DNA of 32,000 nt from Zestosphaera tikiterensis. Lineage in GTDB: Archaea > Thermoproteota > Thermoprotei_A > Sulfolobales > NBVN01. The notes below the pieces were generated by a model, which worked only from the letters and a program-made list of their open reading frames with translations, did no database searches and was not told the DNA's origin. This document shows, piece after piece, positions 2,618-31,692 of the stretch. The stretch spans positions 510,001 to 542,000 of the forward strand of contig NBVN01000002.1 in assembly GCA_003056265.1 (NCBI GenBank), read 5' to 3'. How positions within the stretch are numbered: position 1 is the first letter of the stretch; each line of letters starts with the position of its first letter. A program made the translations under genes and the position numbers.

Positions 2618-4951
2618 ATGAGCGTTGAAGACCCTTACGCACTCTTAGATAAGTGGCTAAACGCTCAGGAACTTCTTGTTGTAGGTAAAGACGTTACCAG
2701 AGTCGACGCTTTTCAGAAGGCTGTAGGTAAGGCTTACTTTACTGAGGATTACCTCCTTAAAGAGGCGTTGTTCGTTAAGCAGGTGTTAAGCCCGTACCCA
2801 CATGCTAGGATATTAAGTTATGACGTACGTAAAGCCTTAGATATTCCAGGCGTTAAAGCCGTAATAACTGCTAAGGATATCCCAGGCGTTAATCAAGTTG
2901 GTTATGCGTTACCCGACCAACCATTGCTAGCTGAGGGTAAGGTTAGATACGTAGGTGAAGTCGTTGCGTTAGTTGTTGCTGAGGACTACGATACAGCTTT
3001 CAAAGGTGTTGAGTCCGTTGAGGTTAAGTATGAGGAACTACCTTACCTGCTAGACCCCTTAGAAGCTATGAACAGAAACGACATTTTAATACATGAGGAA
3101 ATAGGAAGTAATATAGCCTTCAAAACCAAGGTTGTTAAAGGCGACGTTAACGAAGGTTTTGCTAAATCCGACGTAATTGTTGAGAACGAGTATAGAACGC
3201 ATCATCAGGACCATATCTACCTAGAGCCTGAAGCAGCCTTAGCTATACCGGACATGGAGGGTAGGATAACGATTATTTGCTCAACGCAGTACCCACACCT
3301 AACTAGAGATATTGCATCTAAAGTTTTAGGTCTCCCGTCAAGCTACGTAAAGATAATAACACCATACGTAGGCGGAGGCTTCGGAGGTAAGGACGATGAG
3401 GGGCCGCTCGTAGCTGCTAAAGCAGCTTTAGCTGCTTATTTAACGGGAAGACCTTCCTTCCTCATGTATAGTAGGGAGGAGTCCATAGCTATACATCCGA
3501 AGAGGGAAGCTACGGTAATTAAGTATAAGAGCGGAGCCTCTAAAGACGGTAGGCTTCAAGCCATAGACGTTAAAATAATACACGATACTGGCGCTTACGC
3601 GAATAGAGGGCCTTTCATTTTGTGGAGAGCTACGGTACATGCTTCAGGACCTTATGAAGTTCCTAACGCTAGAGTCGAAGGCTTCGCAGTATATACCAAT
3701 AAAGTTTATCAAGGGTCATTTAGAGGTTTCGGCAACCCTGGAATTCAATTCGCCGCCGAATCTCAAATGGATTTACTTGCTGAGAAGTTGGGTTTAGACC
3801 CCATAGACTTCAGGCTTAAGAACATACTTAAGGAAGGCAGTACCACCATAACAAGTCAAAAACTTGATCATTCAGTAGGCGTTGGTGAAGCACTACGTAA
3901 AGTCGCTGAAGCCTCTGATTGGTGGCGTAAAAGAAGGGAATATAGCTTAGATACTGGGAGGTTTAGGCGGGGCATAGGCGTTGGGGTGGCGTGGCATGGA
4001 ATAAGCACTTCCAGAGGTGTTCCAGACTGGTCTAACGCGTATGTGAAGATAGAGAAGGACGGTTCAGTAACGGCGTATACGGGCATTGTTGAGATGGGTC
4101 AGGGAGCGCCTACAAGCGCGCACGTTCAAATAATCTCAGAGTTGCTTGGGATCCCACCAACTAAAGTTAAGGTTATATTCGGCACTACAGACGCTCCGGA
4201 CACGGGAGCTACCCACGCATCAAGGGGTAGTAGCATAGGTGGTATAGGTGTTTTAATAGCTGCGGCTAAGTTAAGGGAGAGGTTAGCTAAGCTAGCTTCG
4301 GAAATACTTAACGTAACCCCTGAGGAGATAATGTTTAAAGACGGTAGAGTATACTCTAAGAAGGATCCCAACCTCTATATAGAGTGGAAGGACTTAATTA
4401 AAGAGGCTATCTCTAAAGGTGTTGAGTTAAGCGCTACAGGCTACTTCTTCCTACCGAAGGGTAAGTTCGACGACGTGAGGGGTCAGGGGTTTGCCTACCC
4501 AGCGTTCAGCTATATGGTCGTGATCTCCGAGGTTGAAGTCGATGTTGAGACAGGTGTGGTTAAGGTGCTTAAGGTTTGGCCTGCTTTAGCTGCTGGAAGG
4601 ATATTAAACCCACAGCAAGTTGAGGGTCAGTTGGAAGGGGCTGCAGTTCAAGGTCTAGGGTATGCGTTAATGGAGAACTTAGTTTTCGACGGTAAGGGTA
4701 GGGTAGTGAATCCAGACTTGACGGATTACGTAATACCTACCATTAGAGACGTGCCTGAAATTCAAAAACCGATATACGTTGAAGACTTGTTTAAATACGG
4801 GCCTTTTGGCGCTAAAGGTGTCGGTGAGTTGGCTTTAATACCCATGCCTGCCTCAGTAGCTAACGCCGTATCGCATGCGTTGAAAACTAGAGTTACTTCA
4901 CTTCCGTTAACCCCTGAGAGGGTTTTAGAATTAATACGTAGTTCGAGGTGA
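2618..4951 (+). CDS. Xanthine dehydrogenase/aldehyde oxidoreductase-family molybdopterin-binding large subunit (CoxL/CutA-like)
   Basis: A 777-aa ORF with the motifs GGGFGGK, FRGFGNPG and a C-terminal GAKGVGE (catalytic Glu region). It is followed by medium and small subunit genes with a 4-nt gap and a 4-nt overlap. Confidence 0.9.
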   Translation: MSVEDPYALLDKWLNAQELLVVGKDVTRVDAFQKAVGKAYFTEDYLLKEALFVKQVLSPYPHARILSYDVRKALDIPGVKAVITAKDIPGVNQVGYALPDQPLLAEGKVRYVGEVVALVVAEDYDTAFKGVESVEVKYEELPYLLDPLEAMNRNDILIHEEIGSNIAFKTKVVKGDVNEGFAKSDVIVENEYRTHHQDHIYLEPEAALAIPDMEGRITIICSTQYPHLTRDIASKVLGLPSSYVKIITPYVGGGFGGKDDEGPLVAAKAALAAYLTGRPSFLMYSREESIAIHPKREATVIKYKSGASKDGRLQAIDVKIIHDTGAYANRGPFILWRATVHASGPYEVPNARVEGFAVYTNKVYQGSFRGFGNPGIQFAAESQMDLLAEKLGLDPIDFRLKNILKEGSTTITSQKLDHSVGVGEALRKVAEASDWWRKRREYSLDTGRFRRGIGVGVAWHGISTSRGVPDWSNAYVKIEKDGSVTAYTGIVEMGQGAPTSAHVQIISELLGIPPTKVKVIFGTTDAPDTGATHASRGSSIGGIGVLIAAAKLRERLAKLASEILNVTPEEIMFKDGRVYSKKDPNLYIEWKDLIKEAISKGVELSATGYFFLPKGKFDDVRGQGFAYPAFSYMVVISEVEVDVETGVVKVLKVWPALAAGRILNPQQVEGQLEGAAVQGLGYALMENLVFDGKGRVVNPDLTDYVIPTIRDVPEIQKPIYVEDLFKYGPFGAKGVGELALIPMPASVANAVSHALKTRVTSLPLTPERVLELIRSSR

Positions 4952-4955
4952 GAAC

Positions 4956-5837
4956 ATGCTTACTAAAATACCTGAGTTTAACTTCTTAAAAGCGACTTCC
5001 GTGGATGAAGCCCTACGTCTCATAGCAACTCACAGCAACTATAAGTTGTTGGCCGGCGGGACAGACCTCTTAATGGATTTAAGGATAGGTAGGTATAAAC
5101 CTGAAGTCGTCATAGACATTAGTAAGGTTATGGAGTTGAAATACATTAAAGACTTAGGTGATAAGATAGCCATCGGGTCTTTAACAACCCTTCAGGAGGT
5201 TCTGGAAAGCCCTGTGGTGAGGGGTAAAGCCCCCGTCTTAGTTGAAGCCGTCTCCAACATGGCTTCTTGGCAGATAAGGAATATGGCTACGTTAGGAGGT
5301 AATCTATGTAACGCCTCACCAGCCGCCGATACAGCACCACCTCTTATGGTTTTAAACGCGTCGTTAAAGTTAAGAAGCTTAAGTAAAGGTGAGAGGGTAG
5401 TCAACGTTAATGAGTTTTTCTTAGGACCTAGACAGACAGTGCTTGAGAAGGGGGAGATGCTAACGGAGGTTGAGATACCTTACGTTAAAGACGCCGGTCA
5501 ATCCTACCTTAAGTTAGGTAGGAGGAACGCGTTCACGTTATCTATAGTTTCAGTAGCTTCCTTAGTTAAGGTGGAGGACGGCAGGTTTAAAGAGGTTAGA
5601 GTAGCTTTAAACTCTGTAGCCCCCACCCCAGTTAGAGCTAGGAGTGTTGAGCAGGCTTTAATAGGTAAGGAGGTGTCGTATGAGGCCGTAGTTAAGGCCT
5701 CTAACGAGGTAATTCACGATATATCGCCTATAAGCGACGTTAGAGCTTCAGCAGAGTATAGGAGGAAGGTTTCAATAGTTTTAGTTCGTGATTCCATACT
5801 AAAGTCCTTAAGTGGTTTAGGAATTAACGTGAGGTGA
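4956..5837 (+). CDS. FAD-binding medium subunit of the molybdenum hydroxylase (CoxM/CutB-like)
   Basis: It has LLAGGTDLL and ATLGGNL motifs, is 293 aa, and sits between the large and small subunit genes. Confidence 0.88.
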   Translation: MLTKIPEFNFLKATSVDEALRLIATHSNYKLLAGGTDLLMDLRIGRYKPEVVIDISKVMELKYIKDLGDKIAIGSLTTLQEVLESPVVRGKAPVLVEAVSNMASWQIRNMATLGGNLCNASPAADTAPPLMVLNASLKLRSLSKGERVVNVNEFFLGPRQTVLEKGEMLTEVEIPYVKDAGQSYLKLGRRNAFTLSIVSVASLVKVEDGRFKEVRVALNSVAPTPVRARSVEQALIGKEVSYEAVVKASNEVIHDISPISDVRASAEYRRKVSIVLVRDSILKSLSGLGINVR

Positions 5838-6391: not shown

Positions 6392-6859
6392 TTAAGCATA
6401 TACAACGCTTAGTATGTGTTTTACGGTGGTTGGGTTTTCCAGGTTGTCATTCATTAAAATGTTTATTAACTCTCGCGTTGTGTCGGTTACGTCCATTTTT
6501 AAAGCTTCGTTTAACGTGAAGAAACCTATATCTAGGGATTCTTCACTAGCTTTAACCTCACCTATTGCGTCGAGAATTAGGTAGTCTAGAATCACGTAGT
6601 GGTATCTAATGCTTAAGTCTTTATTTAATCTGATAAACTCCGTTATCGCGTAGAGCTTTACTTTAGAAGCTTTTAAGGAAGTTTCCTCCTCAAGTTCTCT
6701 AATTACGGCTTTCTCGATAGGTTCGCCGGGCTCTACATGACCTCCAGGTATGGACCAGTAGTTAGCTGATGGTGGGTACTTACGCTTAACTAGGAGTAGC
6801 TTGCCCTCCCTTAGGACTATAGCTCCTACAGCAAGCTTAGGCCAGTACTCCACTACCAA
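6392..6859 (-). CDS. NUDIX hydrolase
   Basis: A Nudix box is present: GGHVEPGEPIEKAVIRELEEETSL (GX5EX7REUXEEXGU pattern). Confidence 0.85.
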   Translation of the reverse strand: MVVEYWPKLAVGAIVLREGKLLLVKRKYPPSANYWSIPGGHVEPGEPIEKAVIRELEEETSLKASKVKLYAITEFIRLNKDLSIRYHYVILDYLILDAIGEVKASEESLDIGFFTLNEALKMDVTDTTRELINILMNDNLENPTTVKHILSVVYA

Positions 6860-6953
6860 CCCTCTAACAATATTTAACGCTGTCCTGTTTTTATTTTAAA
6901 CATTCAACCGGTATTTATTTAAGGGGCGCTCTCCTTGAAAAGGGCTTAAGTGC

Positions 6954-8279
6954 GTGGTCTGTGGTTACGTAGAGAATAGGGATGTATACGCAGTTAAATG
7001 CCCTGAATGCGGCGGTCCTTTAATCCCAGTAAGTGAGGTTTCTAAACTTGTTAAGTCTAGGGATTCCTCCGGCGTTTGGGTTTGGAGTGAGGCGTTGGTT
7101 ACAGGTTCTTACAAACCCAAGATAACTATATTTGAGGGTAATACACCGCTTATTAAGCCACGTATCTTAAGCACCTTCTTAAAGATACGTAGGTTCTTCC
7201 TTAAAGACGAGTCTAAAAACCCGACAGGAGTTTACATAGATAGGGGTTCAGCAACTTTAATCACTACGTTAAGGCATTTCAAATTTAGTGAGGTTATAGT
7301 TGCTTCAACAGGTGATTTAACAATCTCAATATCTGCTTATGCTAAGCAAGCAAGAATGAAGGTTAAAACGTTCATGCCTTCTAATGTGTCGTTAAGTAAA
7401 GCTTATAAAGCTATGTTATTAACCGACAGCTGTAGGTTTGTTGAGACTTACGATGAAGCCGTAGCTAAAGCACTTAAGCAGGAGTTGAGGGGTTATCAAG
7501 CAGCGGTTTTAGCTACGAACCCATACCTTATGGACGGGTATAAAACCATAGTTTACGAGGTTGTTAACGAGTTAAGCGAGTTAGACAATAAACCTAATTA
7601 CATAGTGGTTCCTATAGGTGACGGTGTTTTACTGGCGAGTATAAAACAGGCTTTCGAGGATTTGAAGTTAGGTAATGTTAAGTTCTTAGGCGTTAAAGCT
7701 CGTAGGGAAACCCCCCTCTTAAGGGAGATATATGTTGAAACGCCGTTGTTTAAAGACTTTATTGAAGGGTTGAGGTCTTCAGGAAAGCTTGAGATAGTTG
7801 AGGTTGAAGAGGATGAAGCTCTTGAAGCTAGTGAACTTATGATTAAAAAAGAAGGTTTGATGGTGGGACCTGTCGGTTCTTCATGTGTAGCGTCACTAAC
7901 TAAGGCATTGAATTATGGTGAGAAAGCCTTAAAAGAAGCTGTGGTTGTGGCTGTAGTTACTGGAGATTCACTTCAAGACCCTTACTTAATGAGGGCTTTA
8001 CTTGAGAGAACGTTAAAGCCTAAGGAAATCCCGTTGCTTGGGTTTACGAAGCTTAAGATACTTGAGATACTTGCTTACGAAGGTCCTAAACACCCTTACG
8101 AGATTTGGAAGTCTTTAAAAGTTAAACACGCCATAGATATAAGTAAGAGAGCTGTCTATCAACACTTAGACGAGTTAGTTGAGAGCGGGTTAGCCGTAGT
8201 TAAAGACTATGTAAAAGTAAGCGGCAGGCTTAGGAAGGTATATGGGATAACGGACTTAGGGCTTAAAGAACTTAAGTGA
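6954..8279 (+). CDS. Threonine-synthase-like (PLP fold type II) domain lacking the Schiff-base lysine, fused to a C-terminal winged-helix DNA-binding domain. Putative regulator or pseudoenzyme.
   Basis: The N-terminus is a ThrC-type zinc ribbon (KCPECGGPL). EGNTPL is present. Where ThrC has NPTGSFKDRG, this protein has NPTGVYIDRG (K to I). ASTGD replaces ASTGN and PIGDG replaces PVGNAGN. The last ~80 aa (LKILEILAYEGPKHPYEIWKSL...RAVYQHLDELVESGLAV) resemble a PadR/ArsR-type wHTH. Confidence 0.65.
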   Translation: MVCGYVENRDVYAVKCPECGGPLIPVSEVSKLVKSRDSSGVWVWSEALVTGSYKPKITIFEGNTPLIKPRILSTFLKIRRFFLKDESKNPTGVYIDRGSATLITTLRHFKFSEVIVASTGDLTISISAYAKQARMKVKTFMPSNVSLSKAYKAMLLTDSCRFVETYDEAVAKALKQELRGYQAAVLATNPYLMDGYKTIVYEVVNELSELDNKPNYIVVPIGDGVLLASIKQAFEDLKLGNVKFLGVKARRETPLLREIYVETPLFKDFIEGLRSSGKLEIVEVEEDEALEASELMIKKEGLMVGPVGSSCVASLTKALNYGEKALKEAVVVAVVTGDSLQDPYLMRALLERTLKPKEIPLLGFTKLKILEILAYEGPKHPYEIWKSLKVKHAIDISKRAVYQHLDELVESGLAVVKDYVKVSGRLRKVYGITDLGLKELK

Positions 8280-8460: not shown

Positions 8461-9564
8461 TCATCTAGTAACTGAAGCTTTAATCTCCTCAAGTAACGCT
8501 TTAACTTCTGGATCGCTTAAGACGTTATTCCTTATTGGAGTTATGAACTTAATTAGATATTCGGCGACGGCTTTTTTAAGATCTAACGGATGTATCTTAC
8601 CTTCACTGTAGGTTTTTATCAGCTCCTCCTGAGTGTGTATTTCTATAGGCCCTCCGTATTTAGCAGGTCTTTCGATGATGAATTCCCTCTCCTCACCCCT
8701 GAATATTAAGTGCTTAGCTAACTCTATGACTGGGTTACCTTCAACTATTTTAGGGGGGCAGTAAGCCTTCATAACTTTACTCCTGATCTCTTCATCCGTA
8801 TCTGTTATGAATATAGTGGATTCAGGCTTAGATTTACTCATTTTATACTCAGCTAAAAACTCGTCTATATCTTCCTTACTTACTTTACTGAAGTCCATCT
8901 TACCGTAACCTTGAAGGGAAGGTATTAAAGGCGTATGTATAGCTATGACTTTCTTCAAACCCAACTTCTCAGCAACGTCTCTTTGAAGCATATGCGCCTT
9001 TCTTTGATCTGTACCGCCTAAAGCTACGTCAACACCCAACTTAAAAATGTCTGTGACCTGCATTAACGGATATATGAGTTTAGAGAAGTCTGACTCGCCT
9101 TCGTCAGCCTTCCTACCCATTATAGTTAAAGCTCTTTTAACTCTAGCTAGACTTACAGCCTTACCCGATTTTAAGAGCGTGGCCCAGTAATCTGGATCGC
9201 TTACTAACTCTTCAGCGTATACGACTTTATAACGGCCTTCAATACCTAAGGAGTCAAGCACTTTAAACACGTGTTTAGCTGCGACGTTAATTAACCTTAA
9301 ATCACCGCCTAACTTATCGTTTATCCACGCATGCCAAGTAGCGGCAAGTAAATTCATTTTAATGCCGACATCAACTAAGTCTTTAAATTTAAGCGCCCAA
9401 ACAAACCAACCTACGTGGAATATACCGCTTGGTTCAAAACCTAAATAACCTGAACCCCCGCCGGTCTCCAATAAGGTTTTAAGCTCATCTAAAGTTATAA
9501 CTTCCTCAACATCTCGTGTAGCTATACGTAACTTACTCTCTAAATCCATATACCACACCGTCAA
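8461..9564 (-). CDS. tyrS: Tyrosine--tRNA ligase (archaeal type)
   Basis: It aligns by eye with M. jannaschii TyrRS: GFEPSG.FHVG (HIGH region), YPLMQVTDI, LGVDVALGGTDQRK, KMSKS, KAYCPP..VEGNPV, HPLDLKKAVAEYL. The likely true start is the ATG at 9549 (MDLESK...), about 35 nt from a TATATATA box at 9581-9588. The track start at 9564 is a TTG. Confidence 0.92.
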   Translation of the reverse strand: MTVWYMDLESKLRIATRDVEEVITLDELKTLLETGGGSGYLGFEPSGIFHVGWFVWALKFKDLVDVGIKMNLLAATWHAWINDKLGGDLRLINVAAKHVFKVLDSLGIEGRYKVVYAEELVSDPDYWATLLKSGKAVSLARVKRALTIMGRKADEGESDFSKLIYPLMQVTDIFKLGVDVALGGTDQRKAHMLQRDVAEKLGLKKVIAIHTPLIPSLQGYGKMDFSKVSKEDIDEFLAEYKMSKSKPESTIFITDTDEEIRSKVMKAYCPPKIVEGNPVIELAKHLIFRGEEREFIIERPAKYGGPIEIHTQEELIKTYSEGKIHPLDLKKAVAEYLIKFITPIRNNVLSDPEVKALLEEIKASVTR

Positions 9565-9648
9565 CCTAATTTAAAACGTTATATATAGTTTAAAAATTGA
9601 GATTTGCATGAGAAAGCATGTGGATATTATCCCTACGGTAAATCGACG

Positions 9649-10071
9649 TCAGCGTTTTAACTTATTTAAGAATTTTTCTTTGTCGACTACGAACCTTTCG
9701 TGTGTACCGTAACCGATTAACTTATTCTCCCATAAAACCTCAACCCAATACGTAAGTCTTCTTTCATCAACGTTTAGTAAGGTAGCTTTAACTTCTACTT
9801 CAGCTCCTACAGGAGCTGCTTTAACGTGGTAAACGTTTACGTGAGTACCTACTGTAGTTAAGTTCTGCGGTAGGTTTTCATCCGCTAATATCCTACAGGT
9901 TTCCTCCATAAATAAAATCATTGACGGCGTAGCTAACACTTCAACACCGCCTGAACCTAAGTGCTTAGCTGTGTGTTGTTCAGTGACTACATACTTCCTA
10001 CTTAACTTCATCCCTGCCTGAAGAGCCATTAAGCCACCCACAGATACTACTGAAGTGAGTCTTAAAAACAT
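9649..10071 (-). CDS. Hotdog-fold thioesterase (FlK/YbgC-like superfamily)
   Basis: The sequence VTEQHTAKHLGSGGVEVLATPSMILFMEETC is typical of this small thioesterase family. The start may be internal (MALQAG.. or MKLSRK..). It overlaps the upstream ECF T gene. Confidence 0.6.
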   Translation of the reverse strand: MFLRLTSVVSVGGLMALQAGMKLSRKYVVTEQHTAKHLGSGGVEVLATPSMILFMEETCRILADENLPQNLTTVGTHVNVYHVKAAPVGAEVEVKATLLNVDERRLTYWVEVLWENKLIGYGTHERFVVDKEKFLNKLKR

Positions 10072-10766
10072 AGCTTAAGCAGGTATATAGCTGTTAAGTT
10101 AATCATAACTAAGCAAGCGGTAATTGCGGTGTCTCTCCAACTGTACCAATACTTGGGTTGGAAGACTCCTTTAGCATGCTGAGCTTCCTCATAGAATTGA
10201 GAGTATTCCTCAACGGTAACTACAGTTATTGCTAGCCCCCTCCACAACTCAACATTCTTCATAGACGCTATAGTTAAAGCTGTTTTCAAGTCTTTAAGTA
10301 TGTGTGGAACCGCTTTCCACGTAAGTACGGGATACAGCGATACCTCCTTCAGCTTTAAACGATTCATTAAGTAAGCTAACTCGATAGGGTTGATGAAGTA
10401 GAGGAAGGCTAAAGTAGCTAAGCTTAAAGTAAATACGTTGACGGTAATGGCTAACGACTTAACGACGCTTAAGGTAAACGGTAGGGAAGTGATGAAGTAC
10501 CATATAGTAGGTATCGAAGCTAATATCGAAGCATACTTTAAAACCTTCGAAGCTCCTCTAAAGACATATGTAAGAAGGGTTGAAAACAACGCGATGAGAG
10601 AACCTACAGCACTTAAATTAACTAAAACTACCTGAGTTAACAGAAGCGTTAGGTTTAAAATTACGGGGACATGCCTTGACTCCATATCCCCATAGATAAA
10701 TAAAGACCTAATGATTAACTCACTAGCGTATTTCACTAACGAGGAAAGCTTACCGCCAATCCTCAA
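10062..10766 (-). CDS. ECF transporter transmembrane (T) component (EcfT/CbiQ-like)
   Basis: A polytopic 234-aa membrane protein immediately downstream of, and overlapping, the fused ABC ATPase gene. Its position in the S-A-T gene order supports the call. Confidence 0.65.
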   Translation of the reverse strand: MRIGGKLSSLVKYASELIIRSLFIYGDMESRHVPVILNLTLLLTQVVLVNLSAVGSLIALFSTLLTYVFRGASKVLKYASILASIPTIWYFITSLPFTLSVVKSLAITVNVFTLSLATLAFLYFINPIELAYLMNRLKLKEVSLYPVLTWKAVPHILKDLKTALTIASMKNVELWRGLAITVVTVEEYSQFYEEAQHAKGVFQPKYWYSWRDTAITACLVMINLTAIYLLKLCF

Positions 10767-12000
10767 GGTTGATCACCTCGTTAGCTATTTTTAGAAGGTC
10801 TTCGTCGTGAGACGCTATAACAAATCCCGTACCTAACTCAGCAACTTTCTTAATGCCCTTCAAGACAAGGTATTTATTCCAAGGGTCTAAACCTATTGTT
10901 GGTTCGTCCATGAAGACTAACTCATACCCCCTAGCTAGGGCTGAAGCTAAAGCAAGCCTTCTACGTTCGCCAGTACTTAACTTAACAACCGGTATATTTG
11001 ATTTACTGCTTAATCCGAAGTCCTGCAGGAATTTACTGCTAAGTTGAGGGTTCGCTAGGTTTAACTCCTCCGCAGGTGTTGAGCCTGAGAAATATAGAAG
11101 TGGGTTATCAGGTATTAAAACGCTTTTGATCCTTCCATCCTTAACTGATTTTTCAGCTAGGGTTTTTAAAAGTGTTGTTTTCCCAACTCCTGAGTAGCCT
11201 TTAATAAGCACTACCTCACCAGAACATACCTCCAACTTAAAATCCTTAAGTAGGGGTTCCTCAGCATCCGGGAACTTAATCTCATCCACTTCAAAAATGA
11301 AGTGTTTTAAGCAGTCCCTGCTTTCTGAAGGATCTAAATCGTTAAGTGCTTCGTAAGCTTTGCTATAGTATTCAGGCTCGTCCTCAACTAGTTTGCCGTC
11401 AACCATATAGTAAACCTTATCAACAACGTCTAACCACACACTTACGTCGTGATCTACGATTATGAATGATTTACCGAATCCCTTAAGTTCCTTAACATAT
11501 TTAATTAGGTTATCGGCGTTAGGCCTATCTAAGTATGCGGTCGGCTCATCCAGAAGTATTAAGTCTTTACTTGAGTGCGTAGCTATTATGAAAGCCAGCC
11601 TTTGAACCTCCCCAGCACTTAACGTGTAGGTAGACCTCATTAAATGACGGCTTAGTTTAAAATGATTTAAAACCTCCTGAACATCGCTTAACCTCTTAAA
11701 ATCCGTGAAACTCAATACTTCAGACCAGACGTACGGTGTGGTTATGAAGAACCAAGGCTCTTGATGTAGATATATGGAGCTACGGTGTAGAAAATCTAGA
11801 GAAGGTTTAACAAAACCTGAGACGGAACCTCTAACCACCTTAGGTATCACACCACATAAACTCTTTAGAAGCGTTGATTTACCGGCGCCTGAAGGACCGG
11901 CGATTAAAACGGCCTCGCCCCTACTTAAAGATAGGTCGACCTCATTAACTATTAAAGCCCCGTCGAGACGTACAGTAAAACCATTTAATTCGAAAGTCAT
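10750..12000 (-). CDS. Fused tandem ABC ATPase of an ECF transporter (EcfA1-EcfA2-like)
   Basis: There are two complete motif sets. Set 1: GPSGAGKST, LSAGEVQRLAFI, LILLDEPTAYLD, VDHD. Set 2: GYSGVGKTT, LSTGERRRLALA, LVFMDEPTIGLD, ASHD. At 416 aa it is compact for two ABC domains. Confidence 0.85.
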   Translation of the reverse strand: MTFELNGFTVRLDGALIVNEVDLSLSRGEAVLIAGPSGAGKSTLLKSLCGVIPKVVRGSVSGFVKPSLDFLHRSSIYLHQEPWFFITTPYVWSEVLSFTDFKRLSDVQEVLNHFKLSRHLMRSTYTLSAGEVQRLAFIIATHSSKDLILLDEPTAYLDRPNADNLIKYVKELKGFGKSFIIVDHDVSVWLDVVDKVYYMVDGKLVEDEPEYYSKAYEALNDLDPSESRDCLKHFIFEVDEIKFPDAEEPLLKDFKLEVCSGEVVLIKGYSGVGKTTLLKTLAEKSVKDGRIKSVLIPDNPLLYFSGSTPAEELNLANPQLSSKFLQDFGLSSKSNIPVVKLSTGERRRLALASALARGYELVFMDEPTIGLDPWNKYLVLKGIKKVAELGTGFVIASHDEDLLKIANEVINLEDWR

Positions 12001-12746
12001 TCCCTACCCACAGCCTTCCTAGTAAATGTTATAGCTGGCGACGCCAACGCTAAGCCAACCAACGCCTGCCCTAGGTTAACCGGCACTTCAAGAATAGCTT
12101 GCTCGGGAGGTATCCCTTGTAGGGGGTTGGAGATGAAGAACTCGTAGAGGAAGTAGCCTAAAACCATGATCAAACCTCCGGTGAGTATCGCAGGCACGAA
12201 GCTAACGTTTTCAGAGTTTCTAGTAAGTATGAAATAAATCATCACTAAAACTATAGCTACGCTTAAAACAATCCATAAAACCTCAGGTAGGGTTAGACTC
12301 CATTCCAGAAGCGTTAACTGCAGACCTCCTAAACTTATAGGTACTGAAGTAACTATAACCTCGCCTGAGAGTGTGTTCACACCTACGTACGCTAAAATCA
12401 ACCCGATAACTAAAGCTAAAACTATGGAGAGAACCCTAGCGAATTTAAACGTAGCCCTCTTCGACATCAACCCTATAAGCGTTGATACGGTAAAACCTTC
12501 TAAAAACTTAATTGCTAAAGTCCCTGGAGCGAAGATACCGTAACCTGTGGCTAGGTCGGCTATAGCTGAACCAACCCCTCCAGCAAACCCAGCCGTTAAA
12601 GGCGAGCTTAAGGAAGCGATTATATATATAGCGACCTCACCTAAGTTGAAATACCCTCTAGTGGCTGGCGTGTATACCTGAAGCACTATAGTAGCTACGA
12701 AAACCAACGCGGTATACATAGCTAGCCTAACGACCTTCATCCTCAA
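11997..12746 (-). CDS. ECF transporter substrate-capture (S) component-like membrane protein; substrate unknown
   Basis: A hydrophobic 249-aa protein with an S-component-like N-terminal pattern (YFNLGEVAIYIIASL..PLTAGFAGGVGSAIADL). It is first in the operon and overlaps the ATPase gene by 4 nt. Confidence 0.6.
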   Translation of the reverse strand: MRMKVVRLAMYTALVFVATIVLQVYTPATRGYFNLGEVAIYIIASLSSPLTAGFAGGVGSAIADLATGYGIFAPGTLAIKFLEGFTVSTLIGLMSKRATFKFARVLSIVLALVIGLILAYVGVNTLSGEVIVTSVPISLGGLQLTLLEWSLTLPEVLWIVLSVAIVLVMIYFILTRNSENVSFVPAILTGGLIMVLGYFLYEFFISNPLQGIPPEQAILEVPVNLGQALVGLALASPAITFTRKAVGRE

Positions 12747-12950
12747 TCACCGAAGAATTGACGTTACTTAGCTTTTAGGTGTGAGCTTCACTATCTACTT
12801 CACTATTAGCTTAAGCTTACGTTTGATGTTGGAAAAGACAGGATCTCGCATTCAGTGCGGACACTACATTCATCATATTTCAGAGATCGAGGACTTCATC
12901 AACCTACTTAATTTAACTGCATGCGAGTTAATATTTAAATGGTGTTTTGA

Positions 12951-31126: not shown

Positions 31127-31692
31127 CTCTTGCTTAAGTCTTCCAACCCTAAGTTTATTAACGTTTTTATTAAGACTTCCTTACAAGGTTTTAACGCGTC
31201 CTTACTTAATAACTCTTTAATTGCTTTAACGTTGTTTTCCGATATTTCCTTAACCTCAACGTAACCTGCTTTTAAGTATTTAAGGCTTTGTAGGGTTGTT
31301 GACGTATAATCAGCTAATTTAACGATTAAAGCTTCGAGGCTCTCCCCCTTATTTAACTCCGTGATTAAAGGTGCGTATTTACTTAAGCCTAACTCGCTCA
31401 ACGCCTCCAACTCTAGGGACTCTATGTCTTTGCCTAACCTGCTTTTAACCCATTTAACCACGTCACCCATCACAGCCTCCGGGATGTCGTGAATTAAACT
31501 CATTTTTAAGATTTTCTCTACGTCTACCTTACCGCATGAGTTGCTTACCTCCTCAGCTATGATTAAAGCTATTAAAGACACTTCGAAGGTATGTGAGGCT
31601 ACCGTCTCAGCTAAGGCGTTTGGAACCCCCCTTAACATCCAGCCCGTTCTAGACACGTACTTAAGGTTCATAACCTTGCTTAAGTTCGTCAA
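31123..31692 (-). CDS. HD-domain phosphohydrolase (YfbR-like 5'-deoxynucleotidase family)
   Basis: The sequences RTGWMLRGVPNALAETVASHTFEVSLIA and LIHDIPEAVMGDV match the H...HD...D metal-ligand pattern. Confidence 0.8.
   Translation of the reverse strand: MTNLSKVMNLKYVSRTGWMLRGVPNALAETVASHTFEVSLIALIIAEEVSNSCGKVDVEKILKMSLIHDIPEAVMGDVVKWVKSRLGKDIESLELEALSELGLSKYAPLITELNKGESLEALIVKLADYTSTTLQSLKYLKAGYVEVKEISENNVKAIKELLSKDALKPCKEVLIKTLINLGLEDLSKS

Follow-up and report, generated by a model that had tools for sequence, protein, structure and literature searches.

The window, a 32,000-nucleotide stretch of the Zestosphaera tikiterensis genome, contains an open reading frame whose predicted product combines a threonine synthase (ThrC)-like domain with a winged helix-turn-helix (wHTH) at the C-terminus and which we term the regulator, a designation that anticipates the reading favoured below. 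It is flanked by a divergent NUDIX hydrolase gene on one side and, on the other, by an inverted block of genes which includes a putative ECF importer. The features referred to in the following are:

6392-6859, minus strand: NUDIX hydrolase, divergent neighbour of the regulator, conserved in 18 loci
6936-6953, plus strand: in-frame TGA followed by AAA GGG CTT AAG TGC (K-G-L-K-C), preceding the GTG at 6954 and containing the first zinc-ribbon Cys codon
6954-8279, plus strand: ORF of the ThrC-like putative pseudoenzyme with PadR-type wHTH, 441 amino acids as called, GTG start
7236-7238, plus strand: codon of Ile95, the residue standing in place of the PLP Schiff-base lysine, within NPTGVYIDRG (7218-7247)
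8058-8276, plus strand: PadR-type winged helix-turn-helix, residues 369-441 (PF03551, 40.2 bits; AlphaFold2 model)
8461-12746, minus strand: inverted block reaching from the ECF S component to TyrRS, which in about 16 related loci directly follows the regulator in the same direction
9649-10071, minus strand: FlK-type hotdog thioesterase, last gene of the ECF block, conserved in 14 loci
10062-10766, minus strand: membrane protein occupying the place of the ECF T component within the block
10750-12000, minus strand: fused ECF A-A' ATPase with two ABC_tran domains, 416 amino acids
11997-12746, minus strand: ECF S component (PF07155, E 4.9e-22), whose sole PDB sequence match is 4hzu_S
12786-12806, minus strand: candidate operator consisting of a tandem direct repeat, ATAGTGAAG-TAG-ATAGTGAAG, top genome-wide score of 23.3 bits

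Within the regulator, a zinc-ribbon remnant (residues 1-21) is followed by the PALP fold (58-337), a linker (338-363) and the wHTH (364-441). Pfam assigns residues 58-337 to PALP (PF00291, E 5.9e-46) and residues 369-441 to PadR (PF03551, E 3.4e-10), the latter with a score well above the cut-off of 27 bits. The AlphaFold2 model, which was built on 35 homologues, reaches a mean pLDDT of 90.1 and consists of a ThrC fold followed by a winged helix composed of the elements H364-376, H381-390, H398-410, E414-422, E425-432 and H434-440. The best Foldseek matches of this model are threonine synthases (TM 0.74-0.77 on target; E about 1e-20). The initial annotation, made from the DNA sequence alone, had recognised a ThrC/fold-type-II pattern in the first ~360 residues and a wHTH at the C-terminus, and had suggested structure prediction as a check on the latter; both domains are recovered by the profile searches as well as by the model.

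Phmmer alignments to the solved threonine synthases 6cgq, 2zsj and 1uim place Ile95 of the regulator opposite the Schiff-base lysine (K61 of 1uim). The exchange of NPTGSFKDRG for NPTGVYIDRG, from which the loss of this lysine had initially been concluded, is thus corroborated by these alignments and by the translation of 7218-7247, and it is indeed an isoleucine and no lysine which stands at the PLP position. The same alignments reproduce the two further alterations pointed out at the outset, namely ASTGN to ASTGD (N87 to D121) and PVGNAGN to PIGDGVL. Moreover, residues T88, N154, S155, R160 and N188 of 1uim, which we take to constitute the binding site for the phosphate of O-phosphohomoserine in the Thermus thermophilus structure, correspond to L122, L186, A187, L192 and D223 in the regulator. 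O-Phosphohomoserine is accordingly unlikely as a ligand, all aligned phosphate-binding positions being replaced. D121 and D223 constitute new acidic residues at the position contacting O3' of PLP and in the phosphate-binding loop, which might disfavour phosphorylated B6 vitamers. Retained are the glycines G222 and G224 of the glycine-rich phosphate loop and the T336-G337 pair that contacts the pyridine N1. Within the closer clade D121, L122, L192 and L226 are invariant and I95 is nearly so. Since the pocket of a decaying enzyme would be expected to drift, the pocket of the regulator, assessed from sequence alignments, looks remodelled and selected, not decayed.

With threonine synthases (TIGR00260; 1uim, 6cgq, 2zsj) the regulator has in common the fold-type II fold, the N-terminal zinc ribbon found in archaeal ThrC and about 26-28% sequence identity. 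It differs from them by the missing Schiff-base lysine, the replaced phosphohomoserine-phosphate residues, the additional DNA-binding domain and its TIGR00260 score of 94 bits, which is below the cut-off of 167.1; the scores on all other ThrC equivalogs are likewise below the respective cut-off. The Z. tikiterensis genome encodes three other ThrC paralogues which have both the lysine and a zinc ribbon, and two of them pass TIGR00260 (a lysine-bearing ThrC of this genome, L003, scores 286.8). We therefore reject the assumption that the regulator is the threonine synthase of this organism. Dependence on the lysine that forms the internal aldimine is common to all known fold-type-II PLP enzymes, and this residue is replaced by I, L, M, R, S, A, V or T across the family of the regulator. 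Together with the loss of the substrate-phosphate site and the failure to reach any ThrC equivalog cut-off, this makes it very improbable that the protein is still an enzyme, be it bifunctional in the manner of RbkR or working with a non-covalently bound cofactor, to which the wHTH would merely add feedback control, even though the fold is intact, the G222/G224 loop and T336-G337 are retained and RbkR provides an archaeal precedent of a wHTH joined to an enzyme that is still active (PMC5397151).

The NCBIfam profile NF004170 (PRK05638, “threonine synthase”, 442 positions) is matched by the regulator at profile positions 2-422. As true ThrC sequences stop at position 358 while the match of the regulator extends beyond it, this “equivalog” profile itself seems to include the fused C-terminal region as well. 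Scoring 152-156 bits compared to a cut-off of 421, the regulator is not a member by the NCBI rule, and the name of the profile implies an enzymatic function which the fusion family most likely lacks.

The regulator is by no means a solitary fusion. A search of 5.8 billion proteins, a kind of check that the initial annotation had proposed together with an inspection of neighbouring genes, returned about 40 clusters of fused PALP and PadR domains from Desulfurococcales, Thorarchaeota, Lokiarchaeota and others. The architecture of this family, a zinc ribbon, a lysine-less PALP domain and a C-terminal PadR-like wHTH, is that of the regulator. In the alignment, the lysine position is occupied by I, L, M or R in every fused member (about 30, archaeal) and by K in both unfused ThrC sequences. 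A search of 1.84 billion representatives with the C-terminal 112 residues matched 92 clusters, 56 of which comprise proteins of 426-502 amino acids matched at their extreme C-terminus, counted by protein length and position of the match. In addition, there are shorter lysine-less paralogues (357-384 amino acids), in which S, A, V or T takes the place of the lysine; one of these paralogues aligns end to end with the regulator of the window, wHTH included (E 6e-17). Scans of metagenomes made for the analysis of the regulator returned nothing, and no paper on this family was found in the literature on ThrC-like/wHTH architectures.

To compare gene neighbourhoods, 29 loci around orthologues were fetched and their ORFs clustered; a locus search, dominated by true ThrC, added loci from Desulfurococcales, Nitrososphaeria and Heimdallarchaeota. 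About 16 Desulfurococcales loci share one gene order in which a divergent NUDIX gene is followed by the regulator and by genes for a 249-aa protein, a 416-aa protein, a 234-aa membrane protein, a 130-140-aa protein, in some cases a 240-aa protein, and TyrRS. The regulator thus lies directly upstream of, and co-directional with, an ECF importer (regulator, ECF-S, AA', T, thioesterase). In the window, owing to the inversion of the block, the regulator gene is convergent with TyrRS instead of heading the importer genes. Mediation of this inversion by inverted repeats was considered and dropped, as no convincing pair was found at its borders. The only PDB sequence match of the S protein is chain S of 4hzu, HmpT (E 2e-4); Glu41 of HmpT is conserved in it while His84 aligns with a lysine. 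PF07155, to which the S protein belongs, comprises the B6 importers PdxU and PdxU2/HmpT (PMC9997740), and HmpT (4hzu_S) has been shown to bind pyridoxamine (PMC4860826). For the membrane protein at the T position neither a Pfam nor a PDB match was obtained. A role in B6 metabolism is not obvious for the conserved thioesterase and NUDIX neighbours.

The candidate operator ends 39 nt upstream of the TTG at 12746 with which the ECF-S ORF starts (45 nt before the ATG at 12740), and a TATA-like CTAAAAG follows 6-7 nt downstream of it. The consensus ATAnTGAAG-N3-ATAnTGAnG, whose boxes are spaced by 12 bp, precedes the S gene in 12 loci. The distance from the end of the repeat to the S start is 38-46 nt in 11 of them, with 28 nt in one of these 11; in the twelfth locus the start of the S ORF was probably called too far upstream. 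In the relatives the repeat is situated in the short stretch which separates the S gene from the regulator gene, so that the importer possesses a promoter of its own there, and in the window the repeat has moved along with the inverted block. A weight matrix, derived from seven sites which all originate from other genomes, was scanned across the 1.8-Mb Z. tikiterensis genome. Rank 1 is the S promoter of the window (23.3 bits) and rank 2, with 22.7 bits, a site on contig 18 which is located 54 nt upstream of a pdxS-pdxT pair identified by Pfam (PF01680, 301.9 bits; PF01174, 177.5 bits). Rank 3 is intragenic (19.6 bits). Under a zero-order model, 0.05 matches of at least 22.7 bits are expected in the genome. 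The region upstream of the regulator itself is devoid of the motif, the best matrix score amounting to 0.4, and CTTAAG at the start codon as an operator half-site mediating autoregulation is rejected for the window on this basis. The motif precedes the regulator only in three loci of one genus, all of which are without ECF genes.

The link to pdxST extends beyond Z. tikiterensis. Among five other examined genomes which possess both a long-type regulator and PdxS, the motif is found immediately upstream of pdxS in four (G041, 22.9 bits; G011, 23.8 bits, with a pdxS pseudogene; G040, 16.2 bits; G056, 14.4 bits) and is absent at pdxS from the fifth (G043). G026, in which the 21-mer of G011 recurs next to an incomplete pdxS at the end of a contig, was therefore not counted separately. 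Ten PdxS-positive genomes without a long-type regulator yielded no match of at least 14 bits. In eight genomes without the long type, short lysine-less paralogues are located inside or next to pdxS-pdxT operons, and in one further genome a short paralogue adjoins an ECF-S gene. In the taxonomic family of 52 genomes, 32 have a long-type regulator, only five of which have PdxS, while PdxS is present in 15 of the 20 genomes without it; as the compared genomes are kin, these counts are descriptive and overstate independence. This is the pattern expected if importer and regulator replace de novo PLP synthesis. Unlike most regulator-bearing genomes, that of Z. tikiterensis has the importer as well as the PLP synthase, with the motif at both promoters.

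These observations also bear on the possibility that the regulator senses an effector other than B6, such as an amino acid or another small metabolite, with the pdxS motif being coincidental or serving FmdE/ABC neighbours. In Z. tikiterensis the orientation of the motif on the pdxS side is indeed opposite to that of pdxS, and the motif also faces, at a distance of 110 nt, a gene of the FmdE family. The pocket, with its two new acidic residues, is strongly remodelled, and the conserved neighbours include a thioesterase and a NUDIX hydrolase. Yet the motif upstream of pdxS recurs in four other genera, there in the orientation of pdxS, short-type paralogues reside within pdxST operons, regulator and importer are anti-correlated with PdxS, and the S component is a relative of PdxU and HmpT from the same family (PMC9997740). 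The phosphohomoserine-binding positions, replaced by L, L, A, L and D, further argue against the ancestral substrate. We thus consider a non-B6 effector unlikely.

A peculiarity of the Z. tikiterensis gene concerns its start. As already noticed in the initial annotation, the first CxxC of the zinc ribbon begins upstream of the first canonical start codon, with an in-frame TGA shortly before it, and this is exactly what the sequence from TGA (6936) to TGC GTG (6954) reads. Between this TGA and the first Cys codon there is no ATG, GTG or TTG. The six-frame match to NF004170 begins at the CTT at window position 6945, three codons upstream of the GTG; hence, by this alignment, the L-K-C codons are homologous coding sequence of the family left without a start. 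In all 19 orthologues examined, the first Cys of the zinc ribbon is preceded, at a distance of two to eight codons, by an ATG, GTG or TTG. It is possible that translation starts from the GTG at 6954 and produces a ribbon with three Cys residues, as in the family members P0010 and P0028 which are without the first knuckle. It is also conceivable, as an option added here to the two of the initial annotation, that the TTG at 6935 was the original start: it is one base out of frame, and dropping one base restores M-K-G-L-K-C, so that a gain of one nucleotide within the A4 or G3 run (6938-6944) may have shifted the frame. Use of a non-canonical start is a further possibility. Three database entries from different sources call a protein of 441 amino acids, which weakly argues against an assembly error. 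In the relative G022, a 19-nt string of nearly the same sequence precedes the GTG start of the gene, and a K-C-V-V / L-K-C stretch is duplicated, which hints at a repeat-mediated rearrangement of the start region.

The lost start could, together with the inversion of the importer block which breaks the operon, mean that the gene is decaying in Z. tikiterensis and that the function of the family is no longer exercised there. A database homologue of 83% identity is called as only 324 amino acids, with the N-terminal third missing, and the organism, in contrast to most carriers of the regulator, can make PLP de novo. Such decay appears rather improbable to us, though, as the frame is intact over 441 codons with all family-invariant residues present, the AlphaFold2 model is confident, and the 441-aa call is shared by all three entries. 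The motif of the S promoter travelled with the inverted block and is the best site in the genome, the pdxS site is intact, and the absence of the first zinc knuckle has its counterpart in P0010 and P0028.

We consider it probable, on the strength of sequence and genome comparisons, that the regulator is a non-catalytic, ligand-sensing regulator of vitamin B6 homeostasis with the importer and pdxST as its targets. The architecture, the loss of the lysine, the synteny, the motif with its genome-wide specificity and the phyletic pattern are observed; DNA binding to the motif, the identity of the ligand, for which the genomic context speaks, and the sign of regulation are what we infer from them. 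That an enzyme scaffold had been reused as the ligand-sensing part of a one-component regulator was already the view taken in the initial annotation, and it gains support from the family-wide loss of the lysine and the invariant replaced pocket as well as from the sub-cut-off ThrC score, the separate ThrC genes, the ECF synteny and the repeat linking the importer with pdxST. Neither a ligand nor a target gene had been named at that stage; both were added by the present analysis.

According to the mechanism we propose, the ThrC-fold domain, dead as an enzyme, would bind a B6 vitamer, probably non-covalently in the old cofactor pocket and without forming an aldimine. It would also provide the dimerisation; ThrC enzymes are dimers. 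The resulting pair of wHTH domains would contact both boxes, 12 bp apart and abutting BRE/TATA, at two promoters, namely that of the ECF B6-type importer operon (12786-12806) and that of pdxS-pdxT on another contig. When B6 is plentiful, the ligand-bound form would repress both promoters; alternatively, the apo form would activate them. Ligand-dependent repression is the most likely mode, if only moderately favoured over activation by the apo form. A site just upstream of the TATA element is also compatible with activation.

Compared to classical PadR proteins, which comprise about 110-180 amino acids, carry their wHTH at the N-terminus and bind palindromes, the regulator is not small, its wHTH is C-terminal to a sensor of 360 amino acids and its candidate operator is a direct and not an inverted repeat, even though the wHTH exceeds the gathering score and shows the helix-helix-helix-wing topology. 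As PadR proteins usually bind inverted repeats, a direct repeat is unusual. The arrangement is reminiscent of bacterial PdxR/MocR regulators, in which a sensor derived from a PLP enzyme is joined to a winged helix, whose regulon includes pdxST, salvage genes and the importer pdxU and whose operators consist of repeated boxes, sometimes direct repeats (PMC5320631). A regulon of this kind is predicted here as well, with the candidate operator at the ECF-S and pdxS promoters, while the domains are not those of MocR: the latter consists of a GntR-type wHTH at the N-terminus and an aminotransferase-like domain of fold-type I which keeps the PLP lysine (PMC5320631), whereas the archaeal family considered here combines a lysine-less, fold-type II ThrC sensor with a C-terminal PadR-type wHTH. 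MocR proteins are, furthermore, reported to be absent from Archaea (PMC5320631). The likeness to PdxR is analogy, not homology. RbkR, an archaeal one-component vitamin regulator found by comparative genomics, likewise unites an enzyme domain related to the pathway with a wHTH and controls biosynthesis and transport genes (PMC5397151). RbkR, however, is still enzymatically active, carries its wHTH at the N-terminus and responds to flavins; in the present case the domain is evidently dead and stems from an enzyme of amino acid biosynthesis which merely uses the vitamin as a cofactor.

A survey of PLP synthesis and salvage from 2023 lists no archaeal B6 regulator (PMC9997740), and if our reading is true the family fills this gap. 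We see about an even chance that it represents the missing master regulator of archaeal B6 homeostasis, a pseudoenzyme which reads the B6 pool without a Schiff base, possibly prefers a non-phosphorylated vitamer such as pyridoxamine, and switches the importer and the PLP synthase. It would then exemplify how an enzyme that depends on a cofactor has come to sense this very cofactor, and it comes with a candidate operator and a predicted regulon of two promoters. After RbkR and ThiR, it would be the third archaeal case of a vitamin regulator derived from an enzyme domain. Dozens of “threonine synthase” sequence clusters would, if this holds, actually be transcription factors. Their systematic naming as “threonine synthase” or “pyridoxal-phosphate dependent enzyme” would thereby be put right, a mis-annotation that would distort metabolic reconstructions of threonine biosynthesis in Desulfurococcales and in Asgard MAGs. 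What sets the Z. tikiterensis locus apart is that its importer block is inverted, that importer and PLP synthase occur together, each with the motif at its promoter, and that the start codon is missing. Across the family, the near-complementary distribution of importer plus regulator versus PLP synthase suggests that many such hot-spring archaea are probable B6 auxotrophs.

A second, shorter subfamily of lysine-less proteins (loci L148 to L157), 357 to 384 amino acids in length, carries serine, alanine, valine or threonine in place of the lysine and combines a compact wHTH with the same zinc ribbon as found in the longer regulator type. It adjoins pdxS-pdxT in eight genomes and an ECF S component gene in a ninth. 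Two examples are:

Locus L151, 3082-4197: member of the shorter subfamily
Locus L153, 1471-2544: member of the shorter subfamily

In the related genome G011, pdxT is truncated and pdxS is interrupted by three in-frame stops (two TAA, one TAG):

Locus L160 (G011, contig C30), about 4292-5127: pdxS with in-frame stops

The motif upstream of the broken pdxS is still intact (23.8 bits). It looks as if PLP synthesis has recently been lost in a lineage which possesses importer and regulator.

In the Z. tikiterensis genome itself, the following features outside the window accompany motif sites:

Contig 18, 23569-24258, (-) strand: protein with an FmdE domain and, at its C-terminus, a zinc finger
Contig 18, 22418-23572, (-) strand: likely ABC-system substrate-binding protein, following the FmdE-domain gene
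Contig 19, about 31145-31165, (+) strand: fourth-best motif match, 18.3 bits

The two contig 18 genes are divergent from pdxS, with which they share the intergenic region where the motif is located. The contig 19 site lies within the end of the gene for the first glycine-decarboxylase subunit, 66 nt upstream of that for the second, which in known systems is PLP-dependent. This placement could be due to chance since 1.5 matches of at least 18 bits are expected.

Two further genes are conserved next to regulator and importer:

Window 9649-10071, (-) strand: FlK-type hotdog thioesterase, terminal gene of the ECF block, conserved in 14 loci
Window 6392-6859, (-) strand: NUDIX hydrolase, divergent neighbour of the regulator, conserved in 18 loci

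Neither has an obvious part in B6 uptake.

The stop-to-stop frame in the start region of the orthologue at L038 (G022, contig C28) reads G-F-K-C-V-V-R-R-V-L-K-C-L-E-C. There, the real L-K-C codons are preceded by AAGGGTTTAAGTGCGTGGT, a string of 19 nt almost identical to window positions 6940-6958. This points to a slippage hotspot or a short duplication at the regulator gene's 5' end. The closest non-identical homologue of the window protein (database entries P0002/P0113, from a 92-kb and a 15-kb contig) is 83% identical to it across the 74% of the query that aligns. As it is called at only 324 amino acids, starting with M-V-A-S-T-G-D, the N-terminal third may be disrupted in a sister lineage.

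NCBIfam NF004170 (PRK05638) is an equivalog profile of 442 positions named “threonine synthase”. Matches of true ThrC end at position 358, whereas that of the window protein extends to position 422, so that the fused wHTH appears to be part of what the profile covers. Hence, NF004170 may spread the name of an enzyme onto regulators.
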